From: Takakia lepidozioides
Lineage: Eukaryota > Plantae > Bryophyta
Direction: 5' to 3'
Assembly (NCBI GenBank): GCA_030704615.1
Contig: JAKLZA010000127.1
Coordinates: 1-6,000, forward strand
Length of the DNA stretch: 6,000 nt
Made by a program: the position numbers and the translations under genes. The notes beneath the pieces are model-generated. The model did not search any database and had not been told where the DNA came from. It saw only the letters and a program-made list of their open reading frames with translations. This document shows, piece after piece, positions 1 to 6,000 of this stretch. The first letter of the stretch is position 1. Every line of letters begins with the position of its first letter.

Positions 1-613
1 AATCAAGAATTATTTGAGCAATGATTGGACCGGACACAATGATCGGAGACTTTGCAGCAGTGCCCTGTAACCTCTTCATCTCGTCCACCAATCCATTGTA
101 CATTAACTCTGCCCAAGCAACATCCTCTCCCCTCAAAGCTTTCAGGATCTCATCTGTGAAGGACCTGCTCAAATACTATTGGTTCTGTTTCATGGGAAAC
201 AGAACATTCAAGATTTGTCCAACTTCTCTAAGCCCTGGGTACTCCGCCTTAGTACAAGCAAAACCTTGAGTTTTAAAGAAACTCCCTTGTTGGAACAGAT
301 TCCCTATCTGCAATCTTGCCCTGTACTCATCCACATTCACATGTCCTGATGGCAAATCAAACAGTTGCTGCAGGTACTGGGGAGTAATTTCTATATCTAC
401 TCCCCTCACCTGAGTAACTCCTATCCGAGGCTCAAAGTTTTGAAGAAATTGTATCATGAACTATCGATGATGCAAGGACCAGTCTTTGCGTAGCAATCCC
501 TCCAATCGCAGCTCCTTCAGTAGCTGCACCGCCTATGGTGCAGCGATCATTTGCTTCTGTAAGATTGTGGTGCTTTTCACCCTGTTATCTTCCATTCCTC
601 TCACTCTCTTCAT
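1..613 (-). pseudogene. Decayed ORF resembling plant retrotransposon-associated accessory proteins (Transposase_32 / Athila ORF1-like); runs off window start
   Basis: One frame from ATG at 613: MKRVRG...AAP*AVQLLKELRLEGLLRKDWSLHHR*FMIQFLQNF...QVRGVDIEITPQYLQQLFDLP...NQ*YLSRSFTDEILKALRGEDVAWAELMYNGL...GPIIAQIILD. The F-x-x-N...VRG...I-x-x-x-x-L-x-x-LF-x-LP and G-x-x-V-x-W patterns recall that family. The family assignment is by eye only. Confidence 0.5.
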
Positions 614-1537: not shown

Positions 1538-1627
1538 TTGTCGTGTGCATACGTATCGCTACATAACTACATCGCTGTCCAAACCACACCACACATATAT
1601 GCACAATAAAATAGTCTGCCACAATCG
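1538..1627. repeat. 90-bp direct repeat, copy 2 (pairs with 1074-1163)
   Basis: Same sequence at an offset of 464 bp; abuts the PPT G-run. Confidence 0.97.
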
Positions 1628-1636
1628 CCCCCCTAG
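1626..1636 (-). promoter_or_regulatory. Polypurine tract (plus-strand primer)
   Basis: Minus strand reads CTAGGGGGGCG then AT then TGTGGCAG: a G-run immediately before a TG start, ~250 bp downstream of the pol stop. Confidence 0.75.
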
Positions 1637-1883
1637 CTGGTGGGTAGGTACCTCTACCTCCAGATAGCTACAAGATGTAATAGCCACAGCCGTACTAAGT
1701 CCTCTATCACTGTCCCTATTGCACTCAAACCCTATAGACCAAGAGGCCGGGTACAAGAGTAGCCCCATCGTTAGTCGCCGTCTTGCAATTTGTGAACTTG
1801 AGCCTGGACCTCGTGTGTTCAAGGTCTCCTAGTAGCTGGGCCTTGCGTTTCTTGTTAGCCTTCCATGGTTGTATCCACTCCCA

Positions 1884-3165
1884 CTATCCAATGCAATGTG
1901 GACATAACCAATCCCCATCCGGAACCATCTCAAGAGGTGGAGTCAAGCATCCCATATGCCAACCTCTACAGCATCGATCACACACCAGCATGGTGGCTGC
2001 CCCTCTAGCAGACCCACACAACATGCACCTCAAACCTGCAGATACCACTGCCAAGTTTGGGTCTATCCTGCCATCGACATTCGGAAGGTGACATGGCGCA
2101 CAATTACGCACATGGTCCTTCCAAGTTATGCCATCCCGACCCTCCAAGACCAAGACGCCTGAGGGCAAGACCTCTCGAACCCTCAAAATAACACGTCCTG
2201 CAGTCACATCCAAGGTCGTAGGAGCATGCTGCATAGCAGGGTTGAATCTCCGAACCCCAGGACGATAGCCCCCACCACGTATGGTAGCATACCTCAACGT
2301 ATCACGGTGTTGTGCAATGGCAAGGTTCTCGAAAGCCATGGGCATGACTTTCTTGAACAACTCTGCACGCTGCTCACATGCACGTGCCCACACATCCGGA
2401 TCGTCAAGGTTAAGAACTGTAGCAGCTTCTCTGCGAATGGATGTAGGCAAATCCGGCTCTCGGCCAAAGAGAAGAAAGTATGGTGAGAAGGAGGCAAGTG
2501 ATGCTTGCTTGCTGAACCTGTAGCCCATGGCTAACCAGGTAACTGAAGGTCCCAATCTCCTAGGTGTCCCTTCTGCAAGCCATACTTGCGCAAACCCCTC
2601 TTTACTGTCTGAACAACTCTCTCTGCCAAGCCATCGGCCTCAGGATGATCCCGAGAAGTGGTGCGGTGGTCTATCAAGGCCTTGTCACACAAAGCCTGAA
2701 ACTCCCCCAAGAACTCTCTCCCTTGGTCCGTGAGTACCTCAGCTGGAGCACCGAATCGGCTAAGCACACAATCCAAGAATGCATACGCAGCTCCCTCACT
2801 AGCCTTATCAGGCAATGGAACCAACTCAATCCACTTGGAGAAGTGCTCCACCATCACCAACACGTACTTGTTGTGGCGCATGGTCAGTGGCAACGGCCCT
2901 GCGAAGTCAAGACTCCACCTGTAGCCCAATCCCATGATCGGAAGAGGGTGCAATTGTGGAGTAGGGGCGTTGAATGAAGCACGCACCCTGTCACACACCA
3001 TGCACCTAGCCACAAATTGTTGCACCTCTGTGTGCATACCACGCCACCAATACTGCCCTGCAGTAGACTATGAGTGCGTCGCACCCCAAAATGCCCCAAC
3101 TCCTCATGGGCATGCCGCACTAACCGTGCCCGCTGTGTGGGTGAGGCACAATCCTCACTCACCAT
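1884..3165 (-). CDS. pol: pol: integrase (HHCC zinc finger, DDE core, GPY/F-like region, C-terminal PHD); frameshifts near 3160-3135, 3057 and 2537
   Basis: HEELGHFG...CMVC (HHCC). WSLDFAGP / LTDQGREF / DGLAERV give the D, D(34)E triad. FSPYFLLFGREP follows. Stop TAG at 1886-1884. Confidence 0.93.
1893..2027 (-). other. PHD finger (Cys4-His-Cys3) at the integrase C-terminus
   Basis: CMLCGSARGAATMLVCDRCCRGWHMGCLTPPLEMVPDGDWLCPHC has the full C4HC3 pattern, the hallmark L-x-PPL-x-x-VP-x-G-x-W-x-CP-x-C tail, and is in frame with the integrase C-terminal region. Confidence 0.95.
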
Positions 3166-4997
3166 CCTCCCACACTCGGAGCAGGTGTGTCCCCTCCCAC
3201 TTGAACCTCTTGGCTCGTTGTAGGATCCGATCCCTCTCCTTGGCAGTCACAGTGGCTGCAGTGTCTCCAGTGCGGAGGTAGTCCAACACAACTGAATCCT
3301 CATGTATATCTTTGGCGCCACCTTGCTCATTGCTGGCCTCAGGGTCCTCAGACACTTGATCTACAGTCATCCCTGTTGCAGGTCCAACCTGGCCTTCCGC
3401 TGCCAAGATACACAGAAATGCAGATGCATGCCATCCGGGCACCATCTCCTCGTCCGTCTCACCATGCCACCGAGCTCCAGTGTCATCCTGTTGGCTCGTG
3501 CATGGATTGCGACTCAACCCATCTGCATTGCGATTGACCAAACCCGGTCGATGCACCACCTGAAAGTCATACTCTTGAAGGATGAGTGCCCACCGTGCAA
3601 GCTTCCCCGTAAGCTTGTCTGACTCCATCAACCACTTGAGTGGTTGGTGATCCGTGACAAGGGTGAAGAGATTGCCGTATAGATAGCACCTGAAGTGTGC
3701 CACGGCCCACACTGCAGCTAAGCATTCTCCCTCATATGAGCTATACTTAGACTCTGCAGCATTGTTCGAGCGGCTAGCATAAGCCACTACGAACTCTCTT
3801 CCCTCATCATCCACCTGTGTGAGCACCGCTCCAAGCCCCAGCATGCTCCAATCTGTATGCAGCTGAAAAGGACGCCCCCTGATAGGTCGTCTCAAGATGG
3901 GCGCCGAGGTCAACCTCGCCTTGAGCTCTTGAAAAGCTTGTTCTTGCTCATCTTCCCACTGCCACTCCTGGTCCACCTTGGTCAGCTTGGTTAGAGCCTT
4001 TGCAATGGCACTAAATCCCTTAACAAACCGTCTGTAATAGTTTGCTAACCCCATGAAAGCTCGAACTCGGCTCACATCCGTGGGGCGTGGAACCTGTGCA
4101 ATGGACTCTACCTTAGTCTGCTGTACCCCCAATCCTCCAGGATATATCATGTGACCCAGATACTCAATCTGGTTGTGGAAAAACTTGCACTTGCCCGGAT
4201 GTAACTTCAATCCGTGCGTCCTCAAGCGCTCAAATACCCCCTGAAGGTGTCTCTCATGCTCCTCCACCGTAGCACTAAAGATGATGATGTCATCTATGTA
4301 GCACCGAGCAAACTCCACCCCTGCTAGAATCCTGTCCATGACTCTTTGAAACTCAGCGGGAGCGTTTTTAAGCCCAAATGGTAAGAACCGCCACTGGTAT
4401 AGGCAATCCTTCCCGTGCTCATTGATCCCCCAGAATGCCGTCTTTTGCTTATCCGCCTCCTTGATCGGCAACTGGTGATATCCGGATCGTAAATCCAACG
4501 TGCTAAAGACCTTGGAATGCCCAATGGCATCAAAGATCTCCTCTGGTGGGCATGGCATACCTATCGGACTTGGTCTGACGATTTACAGGCCGGTAATCAC
4601 CGCACATACGTCTCTCCGTCCAATTGCCATAGACATCCTTCTTGGCTGGCATCACTGTGGCTGAAGCATACTCTCCACCAGAGAGCTCCACCAAACCTGC
4701 CTCCCAGAGATCTTGAGTCCTCATCTGAATCAAAGACCTCTCCATGTCACTGTATCTATAGGGTCTCCGAAAGATTGGCGTGTCAGTGGCCAATTCAATA
4801 CGGATCTCTTGACCCTTCAGTGCTCCCAAGTCCTTCAAACTGAAGGCAAAGCAATTCCTGTAAGCCCTCAGGAACCGCCGTATACGTCGTCTCTCTCCTC
4901 CGGTGACAATGGGTCCAATGTCAGGCTCCCAATTGTCCTCCGTAACTGCAACCTTAAGTCCAGTGGGCTTAGAGGTAGAGGACGCGTCCCGTGGTTG
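3155..4997 (-). CDS. pol: pol: reverse transcriptase + RNase H (one frameshift near 4550)
   Basis: RT motifs PIFRRPYRYS, RMCGDYRPVN, LDLRSGYHQL, LPFGLKNAPAEFQ, YIDD (4300-4289), KCKF...YLGH. RNase H motifs LHTDWS (D at 3853-3851), YSSYEGECLA, TDHQPL, NADGLSR (to ~3509). The frame of ORF 4530..4838 is open upstream to 4997. Confidence 0.95.
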
Positions 4998-5299
4998 CTA
5001 TGCTGCAACCTCTTGAGCAGTACTCCCTTCCTGCTCAGTCAATGACAAGGCCTCATCCTGCCCCATCATCTCATCATTGAGAACCTCCTCATCCCGAGAA
5101 GAATCCCCAACCTCATCCATCACAGCTGCCTTGGCTGCCAACTCCCTCTGAACCTCGAGCACCTCCCACGTGTGCCATGGATGTCTACACCCCGTGGTCC
5201 TCACCGGCTCGCCCCGCTGCCTGTACCGTCTCGGTAGGCAGAGAGACCGTCAAGGGAAGTGCACTCCGCACTCTACGTTGCTCAGCCATAGCCAAGCTG

Positions 5300-5998
5300 A
5301 TAATCCAGGTCAAGCAATTGAGATCCATTGCTTGCCCCAACACCTGACGACGTGATGCCTCAGAAAGAGAAGGCACCGCCGTGGTCCCAGTGGAAAACCC
5401 CATAGCCCGCTCTCGCTCGTCGGCATTAGGCTCCACTAACTGCTGCAACTGAGCATCCCACAGGAGGCCAGGTCCACCATCCCGAAAAGCATGGGATCCT
5501 GGGAAGCTGAGCAGTGTAGGTAATGTTGCTCGTGGTTGACCCACCCTGTTGACCACTGCCAAAGGCGAACGGTCATCGTGTCTCACACGTTGAGACTGCC
5601 TCCCTGTGTCCAAAATGTCATCCACGGTGAGGTGTGCTGGCCGCTGCACCCCATCAAATGCACCTTGAGCAGTGCGGGTGGCATCAAGTTAGTCCACCAA
5701 AGCCGTGGACGATGAGCCCGTGACCCCACTGCAGCTGCATCCAGCAACACTGCTGACCCAAGCCACGACCGGACTTGATGCACACTGGCCATCACCCTGG
5801 CCCGAGAATCACCCATCAGTGGCACATTCTCCAAGATGTATGCTGGAGATACAGCTTGATGAAGCTGCAAGGGCGCAAAACCCGCACCATCTCCCAAAAC
5901 AGACCCGTCCTCGAGTCTCGCAATCCATTGCCATGCCCGGCTGATGAATGCCCTTGGCAGGGCCAACCTGCCACTACCAGATCAATGGAGCCAACCCG
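5300..5998 (-). pseudogene. C5 cytosine DNA methyltransferase domain (DNMT3-like) within the pol region; split by two apparent 1-nt deletions (~5872, ~5663); N-terminal motifs I-III beyond window
   Basis: Manual translation from 5998 (frame absent from the ORF track): RVGSIDLVVAGWPCQGHSSAGHGNGLRDSRTGLFWEMVRVLR, with motif IV PCQ at 5962-5954. Next frame: YILENVPLMG (motif VI, ENV 5831-5823) and VLLDAAAVGSRAHRPRLWWTNL (motif VIII, RPR 5711-5703). Next frame: EPNADERERAMGF (motif IX, to 5395) and RRQVLGQAMD (motif X, to 5323). Confidence 0.92.
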
Positions 5999-6000
5999 CT

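Follow-up and report, generated by a model that had tools for sequence, protein, structure and literature searches.

A Ty3/Gypsy retrotransposon family of bryophytes with a DNMT3-like methyltransferase domain ahead of a conserved in-frame stop codon

Layout of the element and its terminal repeats

The window, that is, the whole stretch of 6,000 nucleotides analyzed in this study, contained the 3' two-thirds of a Ty3/Gypsy retrotransposon on the minus strand, running from position 5998 down to 1075 (Table 1). Reverse transcriptase (RT), RNase H, and a DDE integrase were arranged in the Ty3/Gypsy order, and a DNA methyltransferase (DNMT) domain resembling DNMT3 was located upstream of them. The gag and protease genes expected upstream in a Ty3/Gypsy element were found outside the window, in related metagenome loci and in Marchantia proteins. 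We regard the layout described here as nearly certain. The copy in the window is a decayed or dead member of a high-copy Ty3/Gypsy family, with frameshifts near 5871, 5663, 5250, and 4548, as well as several in the integrase. The observed/expected CpG ratio was 0.48-0.58 within the element and 0.64 in the flank, and thus the element was not singled out by CpG depletion.

Table 1. Features of the retrotransposon identified in the window
Feature	Position	Strand	Evidence or remark
DNMT3-like domain, piece 1: motif IV (catalytic PC) and motif V	5873-5998	minus	Pfam PF00145, E 6.9e-10; open at the window edge
DNMT3-like domain, piece 2: motifs VI (ENV) and VIII (HRPR)	5664-5870	minus	1-base frameshifts at both bounds
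DNMT3-like domain, piece 3: target-recognition region, motifs IX and X	5281-5661	minus	
C-terminal tail of ORF1 (Gag-protease-DNMT), acidic, poorly conserved	5001-5249	minus	Frameshifted relative to piece 3 in the window copy
In-frame TAG followed by CAACCA (UAG-CAR-YYA readthrough-type signal), ORF1/pol boundary	4992-5000	minus	
N-terminal part of the pol frame	4533-4997	minus	Earliest ATG at codon 85
Reverse transcriptase and RNase H	3158-4582	minus	RVT_1 E 7.7e-31, RT_RNaseH E 2.2e-36; frameshifted here relative to the pol N-terminus
Integrase zinc finger and DDE core, broken by frameshifts	2534-3246	minus	Integrase_H2C2; rve E 7.9e-15
Integrase C-terminal region with terminal PHD finger (about 2027-1893)	1887-2639	minus	PHD E 5.9e-10
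Polypurine-tract-like sequence abutting repeat A	1625-1636	minus	Common to relatives
Terminal repeat A, first copy (TG...GACA)	1539-1623	minus	
Segment B, starting TGTCA two bases past the GACA end of A	1161-1536	minus	
Terminal repeat A, second copy, 3' end of the element	1075-1159	minus	

The integrase in the window carries a PHD finger at its C-terminal end, and PHD fingers were identified in 13 of the 23 related proteins scanned. REM1 of Chlamydomonas is reportedly also a Gypsy-type element with a PHD finger; we liken the two by description, and we know of no DNMT reported for REM1. As for chromoviruses (Tcn1 and Chlamyvir), the domain search of the window yielded a PHD finger and no chromodomain match, and the comparison was made with an RT tree built without REXdb references. 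PHD fingers are unmentioned in the accessible text of PMC6317226. Additionally, about 50 codons stayed open past the stop behind the PHD finger (1730-1884, minus strand), and the intact integrase ORF may be longer than the one annotated here. Many other copies contained extra sequence at 2226-2237, indicating a deletion in the integrase C-terminal region of the window copy.

The ends of the element were read from relatives. L027 is a complete element in which segment B (341 bp) is followed by the coding region, a polypurine tract, repeat A (112 bp), and then B and A again; this B-coding-A-B-A structure does not consist of two identical LTRs. The window showed the same A-B-A pattern at the 3' end of the element, the only end visible. 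In complete relatives, segment B also forms the 5' end of the element, and the 5' copy of B belonging to the window element would lie beyond the window. An A-B-A 3' end was also found in L030, and A-B was found up to the contig end in L005. Segment B of the window showed no similarity to that of L027, and we assigned its role from its position and end motifs. The internal junction between A and B had the form GACA-NN-TGTC in the window, L005, L027, and L030, and was a perfect palindrome in L027 and L005. All three relatives with both ends (L027, L013, and L021) were flanked by 4-bp target duplications. L012 and L013 carried a single A, which fits collapse between two A copies. Inspection by eye of the sequence after the 5' B in 13 loci revealed no TGG-type primer-binding site for a tRNA. 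An assignment to the DIRS/Ngaro type was rejected, because the family has an rve integrase and 4-bp duplications, whereas DIRS/Ngaro elements have a tyrosine recombinase and no target duplication.

Several minor rearrangements were observed. Segment B of the window contained a perfect 19-bp tandem duplication (1418-1455), and one relative (L021:12674-13570) had an inverted internal rearrangement while keeping its 4-bp target duplication. Around 6250 and 10007 in L033-L036, copies of the L016 subfamily were truncated upstream of motif VIII, and a second GACA-NN-TGTC palindrome was located about 3.7 kb upstream in these loci, possibly reflecting a nested insertion. Outside the element, the window contained a broken ORF (18-460, minus strand; 94 aa with a continuation beyond a stop) similar to accessory proteins of plant transposons (0.90 for the Transposase_32 and ATHILA ORF-1 clusters of the Atlas). 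A homologue of its 179-460 part was found in none of 18 candidates. This flanking ORF was itself repetitive in the sequencing runs of the organism, and therefore the element was likely inserted into or beside another repeat. Taken with the bryophyte elements that are the closest named relatives of the family, the plant-transposon type of this flanking protein makes a non-seed land plant the likely host.

The methyltransferase domain and its distribution

The recognizable motifs of the DNMT domain, IV through X, were all on the minus strand and co-oriented with pol, at the places where an earlier note on this DNA had put them. GWPCQG (IV) and DSRTGLF (V) were found in the first piece of the domain, ENV and AHRPRLWW in the second, and ERERAMGF and GQAMD (IX and X) in the third. 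Motif I, which binds SAM, would lie past base 6000 in this copy and was present in relatives (DLFGG). The order is I-IV-VI-VIII-IX-X, unpermuted as the earlier note had held. Its statement on distance stood in part: no LTR separates the DNMT from RT, but the distance from motif X is about 340 bp to where the pol frame starts and about 800 bp to the RT domain (RVT_1 start near 4531), rather than a few hundred base pairs to RT.

The proposed resemblance to mammalian DNMT3A was supported with the intact relative P0005, for which DNMT3 was the best match by both sequence and fold. Its best match among solved structures was DNMT3A (E 6e-12), and a profile search gave DNMT3A/B at E 5e-14, compared with 6.5e-7 for DRM and 3.5e-4 for M.HhaI. 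In a fold search with the predicted P0005 model (pLDDT 92.4), DNMT3B (Z 28.9, rmsd 2.6, 278 residues aligned) and DNMT3A (Z 27.8) ranked above M.MpeI (Z 25.5), M.HhaI (22.8), DNMT2 (21.5-22.7), DNMT1 (19.3), and chromomethylase (18.3). A DRM identity was rejected on the basis of the unpermuted motif order and the alignment of DRM2 over only 133 residues. The catalytic C140, E183 of ENV, and R223 and R225 of motif VIII were conserved in at least 90% of 65 relatives.

The family was abundant. The window sequence or a part of it was found in 15 of the 19 listed runs, from seven studies, and about 58,000 short contigs matched the window in each of two runs of one sample, although contig depth is not a copy number. 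The summed contig depth over the DNMT was similar to that over RT in those two runs. The two frameshifts in the DNMT (near 5871 and 5663) were absent from many other copies in the same organism, as seen in 30-43 contigs of each of the runs X1 and X2 and in one X9 contig. Additionally, a 5009-bp contig of a second organism covered 1619-6000 at about 95% identity. A scan of metagenomes yielded 36 loci, with gag-protease upstream of the DNMT in 28 and pol downstream in 26. A search of viral contigs for relatives gave 32 pattern matches, none of which was confirmed.

Searching with the DNMT piece identified 59 proteins among 361 candidates, and named relatives were from Marchantia polymorpha, M. 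paleacea, Calypogeia fissa, three Sphagnum species, and Riccia sorocarpa (50-78% identity). The long ones among these proteins read from a Gag with CCHC knuckles through a protease into motifs I (DLFGG) to X. When P0005 was compared with protein clusters at 50% identity, 269 clusters, most of them of metagenome proteins, matched at E <1e-30. Among the best 150 of these 269, 66 also held RT, of which 60 had the order RT-RNaseH-DNMT(-integrase) and six had DNMT-RT. The DNMT and RT shared one ORF in Klebsormidium nitens P0298 and Closterium P0274. A large subclade with the DNMT between RNase H and integrase (P0066, P0076, P0082, and 79 others) probably has green algal hosts; in P0076, a PTM/DIR17-like Tudor domain followed the PHD finger. 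P0360, a pol protein of the clade, is filed under "uncultured Synechococcales cyanobacterium" and is probably of plant or algal origin, placed there through a metagenome bin.

These results bear on several points of the earlier note. The DNMT occurs in many copies and is not confined to the one in the window, and it lies within the terminal repeats of the complete relative L027, that is, inside the element. The suggestion that such an element might occur in a land plant holds for the family, through the named Marchantia, Calypogeia, Sphagnum, and Riccia proteins. Evolution among copies was also not neutral between subfamilies. In comparisons of the window DNMT with 16 loci, pN was 0.17-0.24 and pS 0.69-0.77 (near saturation), and RT behaved similarly (pN 0.12-0.17). 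The dN/dS of the DNMT was 0.06-0.13 between the window and 14 loci, with two further loci saturated, and 0.15-0.25 between L016 and 15 loci, with dS near saturation in these comparisons. Within the Sphagnum-like subfamily, dN/dS was 0.57 over 105 pairs, and most copies had stops. The low ratios between subfamilies indicate that the DNMT domain is under purifying selection.

From the window copy by itself, which is frameshifted and shows only the 3' part of the element, one might imagine that a piece of a host methyltransferase was captured once or nested there by insertion, with no function for the element. Such an event is very improbable and was rejected given the contig depth, the layout of the 36 loci, and the selection results: the DNMT held the same position in the 26 loci with pol, gag-protease preceded it in most loci, its depth was similar to that of RT in the organism's own runs, and the RT and DNMT trees described below contain matching subclades.

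The stop codon between ORF1 and pol

The earlier note had seen no evident intergenic gap between the DNMT and RT. The two are not continuous: an in-frame TAG at 5000-4998 ends the DNMT ORF. Neither this stop nor the split repeats are mentioned in the earlier note. An in-frame stop, taken as the nearest one upstream in the pol frame, separated the DNMT ORF from pol in all 27 junctions compared (the window and 26 of the 36 loci, those with a pol N-terminus), although these junctions represent only three subfamilies and about five pairs seem to stem from one insertion each. The stop was TAG in 21 junctions and TAA in six. CAAC followed it directly in 26 of 27, as did the looser consensus CARYYN, and the strict CARYYA was present in four, namely the window, L016, L033, and L034, which carry the UAG-CAR-YYA motif known as the type I (tobamovirus) readthrough signal (PMC3542737). 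By their junctions, the sequences fell into a window subfamily (TAG CAACCA), an L016/L033/L034 subfamily (TAG CAACCA or CAACTA), and a Sphagnum-like subfamily (CAACCC, then ATG). L001 and L018 had space behind the DNMT and gave no pol match.

The stop was located at one homologous place in these three divergent subfamilies. Between the window and L016, 19 of 21 bases at the junction were identical, compared with 25 of 78 in the upstream flank and 17 of 52 in the downstream flank. Among 884 contigs of run X2, no variant reached 2% at 4992-5002, while 4980, 4990, 5003, and 5004 varied; only 6 of the 101 sites varied overall, and this invariance is weak when taken alone. Scanning every frame of the element on the minus strand gave 137 stop-like triplets, among which only the junction stop was followed by CARYYA. 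In L016, a single frame of 2064 codons ran from gag through motifs I-X and RT to integrase and was interrupted only twice, by the TAG-CAACCA of the junction and by a stop shortly ahead of motif I, and L033 was open over 865 codons except for the junction stop. The gene models of Marchantia (P0014, P0030, P0021, and P0009-type) and Calypogeia (P0019 and P0033) ended 97-99 residues past motif X, like the loci. RNA folds 3' of the stop, as compared among junctions without a shuffle control, revealed no shared structure.

From this conservation, we consider it likely that the stop is read through to make pol. Alternatively, ribosomes could reinitiate at an ATG farther downstream, or pol could have a spliced or subgenomic RNA of its own, with the DNMT still produced at Gag levels. 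The Sphagnum-like subfamily, in which an ATG is the third codon past the stop and the context is CAACCC, would allow reinitiation; six of the 27 junctions have TAA; some Marchantia models (P0012, P0013, and P0023) join ORF1 to RT across the stop, though their introns may be predictor artefacts, and the pol-only proteins P0214-P0217 were called with their own Met. However, the earliest in-frame pol ATG was at codon 85 in the window and at codon 48 in L016 and L033, within conserved sequence, and both the frame and the CAAC context were kept across subfamilies whose flanks cannot be aligned. We therefore find production of pol without readthrough unlikely. With readthrough or reinitiation alike, the DNMT would be part of the abundant Gag product and not of the rare Pol product.

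Relation to known elements and proposed function

The closest known system is KnitGypsy-Dnmt3, which was described from K. nitens and attributed to an acquisition within that lineage (de Mendoza et al. 2018, PMC5890265). The present family shares with it a Gypsy pol, an unpermuted Dnmt3-related domain under purifying selection, membership of the same RT clade, the protease-DNMT-RT-RNaseH-integrase order (K. nitens P0298), and a DIRS-like repeat layout, as the K. nitens elements are described as combining DIRS-like repeats with Gypsy domains (PMC5890265). In contrast, the DNMT and RT share an ORF in P0298 and Closterium P0274, whereas in the present family the stop keeps the DNMT within the Gag ORF, and a single polyprotein as in the K. 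nitens element would result from readthrough. The present family also differs in its land-plant hosts and high copy number.

Trees were built in quick mode with SH-aLRT support only; 16 of the 62 RT-then-DNMT proteins were drawn at random, and P0213 and P0200 were omitted as near-duplicates. In the RT tree, all 62 ingroup rows formed one clade (SH-aLRT 99) against 10 other, hand-chosen Gypsy RTs, although 22 of these rows are pol-only proteins on which a DNMT was not demonstrated. The window grouped with Marchantia and the loci, with a Coleochaete scutata transcript adjoining (95). In the DNMT tree, which was built without host DNMT3, DRM, or DNMT1, the window was placed within an 18-row group with bryophyte sequences (89), and K. 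nitens P0298 was among the sequences of the tree. The 16 RT-then-DNMT rows formed one clade in both trees (100 and 100). Together, the trees link the family with elements of Klebsormidium, Closterium, and Coleochaete and indicate that it is a land-plant variant of KnitGypsy-Dnmt3. With the hand-chosen outgroups, they fit a domain that was acquired a single time long ago, was then inherited, and changed its position once. These results suggest that the Gypsy-DNMT3 clade is much wider and older than the K. nitens lineage.

A DNMT3 origin of the domain is proposed from the best matches and the 2018 paper. Acquisition from a phage or bacterial methyltransferase instead of a host DNMT3 would agree with 582 phage records matching at <60% identity (24-31% identity, E 1e-15 to 4e-9) and with the third rank of the CpG-specific M.MpeI in the fold search. 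Nevertheless, DNMT3A/B came first by sequence, well ahead of M.HhaI, and by fold, and the Klebsormidium sequences that fall among the present ones in the DNMT tree were placed as Dnmt3-related in 2018 (PMC5890265); a phage or bacterial origin is thus quite improbable.

Other systems share parts of this organization. SymbioDIRS-Dnmt3 of Symbiodinium is likewise a retrotransposon-borne Dnmt3 with split direct repeats, but it has a tyrosine recombinase in place of the DDE integrase and is an independent acquisition; it methylates CG de novo in yeast (PMC5890265), which is a precedent for the function proposed here. EpiLTRs/DAM-LTRs are LTR retrotransposons that also combine DNA methyltransferases with a chromatin reader, although their DNMT is sister to DNMT4 and is accompanied by a Dam domain and a chromodomain (Fernandez-Moreno et al., bioRxiv 10.64898/2026.05.21.726589). 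Host plant DNMT3, such as PpDNMT3b, which methylates CG and CHH sites de novo in heterochromatin (Yaari et al. 2019, PMC6453930), and mammalian DNMT3A/B resemble the domain in their unpermuted catalytic domain and fold, the plant enzyme being likened by description. Unlike host DNMT3, the domain is intronless, is embedded in a retrotransposon ORF, and has about 23-25% identity to human DNMT3. The junction resembles type I readthrough of tobamoviruses (PMC3542737), as its UAG precedes CAACCA or CAACTA and the downstream polymerase is in the same frame, and differs from it in the CAACCC of one subfamily. Gag-pol stops are also described in retroelements (PMC3441728); the present stop follows Gag-protease-DNMT and not Gag alone.

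Taken as a whole, the evidence is, in our judgement, probably best explained by a dead Gypsy copy whose family has a DNMT3-like domain ending the Gag-protease ORF, a readthrough stop, and methylation of its own cDNA. Ribosomes would mostly halt at the UAG and read through it at a few percent, as in tobamoviruses, and the DNMT, as the end of the Gag ORF, would be made at coat-protein levels. The protease might free it inside the particle, where it would be in large excess over RT and integrase and could methylate cytosines, likely CG and perhaps CHH, on the new cDNA or the fresh insertion. A new copy would thereby arrive marked like host heterochromatin. The PHD finger on the integrase likely reads histone tails and could influence the choice of insertion site. 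The internal A-NN-B junction may serve as a template for rebuilding the ends, an idea borrowed from models for split-repeat DIRS-group elements, with insertion by the DDE integrase.

Methylation of the element's own cDNA by the predicted DNMT is our best guess on its function, and we hold it with slightly better than even confidence. The DNMT may be kept for another role instead, such as methylating host chromatin or sister copies and thereby damping transposition, acting on RNA, or binding DNA as a component of the particle. In yeast, no methylation was obtained with the KnitGypsy-Dnmt3 domain in isolation, a result its authors call inconclusive, and the same authors name host benefit and RNA methylation as options (PMC5890265); Gag-level amounts could also suit a structural role. 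The conserved catalytic Cys, Glu, and both Arg speak against these roles, as do a fold nearer to DNMT3 than to DNMT2 and, among the RT-bearing proteins in the best 150 of the 269 matches, the predominant position of the DNMT, namely behind RNase H and ahead of integrase, a placement suggestive of the cDNA stage. We consider such roles fairly unlikely.

A broader and more tentative reading, possible but improbable as a whole, would be that Gypsy-DNMT3 elements are an old, green-plant-wide lineage with split repeats and no tRNA primer, a palindromic end junction cut by the DDE integrase, and a PHD reader, and that the land-plant branch put the DNMT before a leaky stop, loading particles at coat-protein numbers and inserting pre-methylated copies. 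If this were true, many-copy non-seed plants would have a second, parasite-encoded source of de novo cytosine methylation.

Our literature search found no report of Gypsy-DNMT3 elements in land plants, although supplementary material and subscription journals might contain one. The accessible text of PMC11982613, PMC9477723, bioRxiv 363937, PMC11244446, and PMC6317226 contained no such land-plant elements. PMC12344493 (2025) and bioRxiv 10.64898/2026.05.21.726589, from the same group, refer to "streptophytes" while citing the 2018 paper, with no land plants named in the main text; the latter separates EpiLTRs from streptophyte Gypsy-DNMT3, and Marchantia and Sphagnum are unnamed in its accessible parts. 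In print, we found this kind of element described from a green alga alone.

Why a transposon keeps an enzyme that silences it is a question that can now be tested directly in Marchantia polymorpha, because the family is present in this transformable species, for which methylation mutants exist, with gene models containing all motifs (e.g., Mp_4g09160, P0030). Unlike the single-ORF elements of 2018, the conserved stop predicts that the DNMT would be abundant in particles and that the base context would tune the DNMT:RT ratio. Additionally, the combination of split repeats, a DDE integrase, and target duplication points to an unstudied way of rebuilding retrotransposon ends. Copies of the element have been annotated as host DNA methyltransferases (P0014 and P0022) and can inflate DNMT counts in bryophyte genomes.
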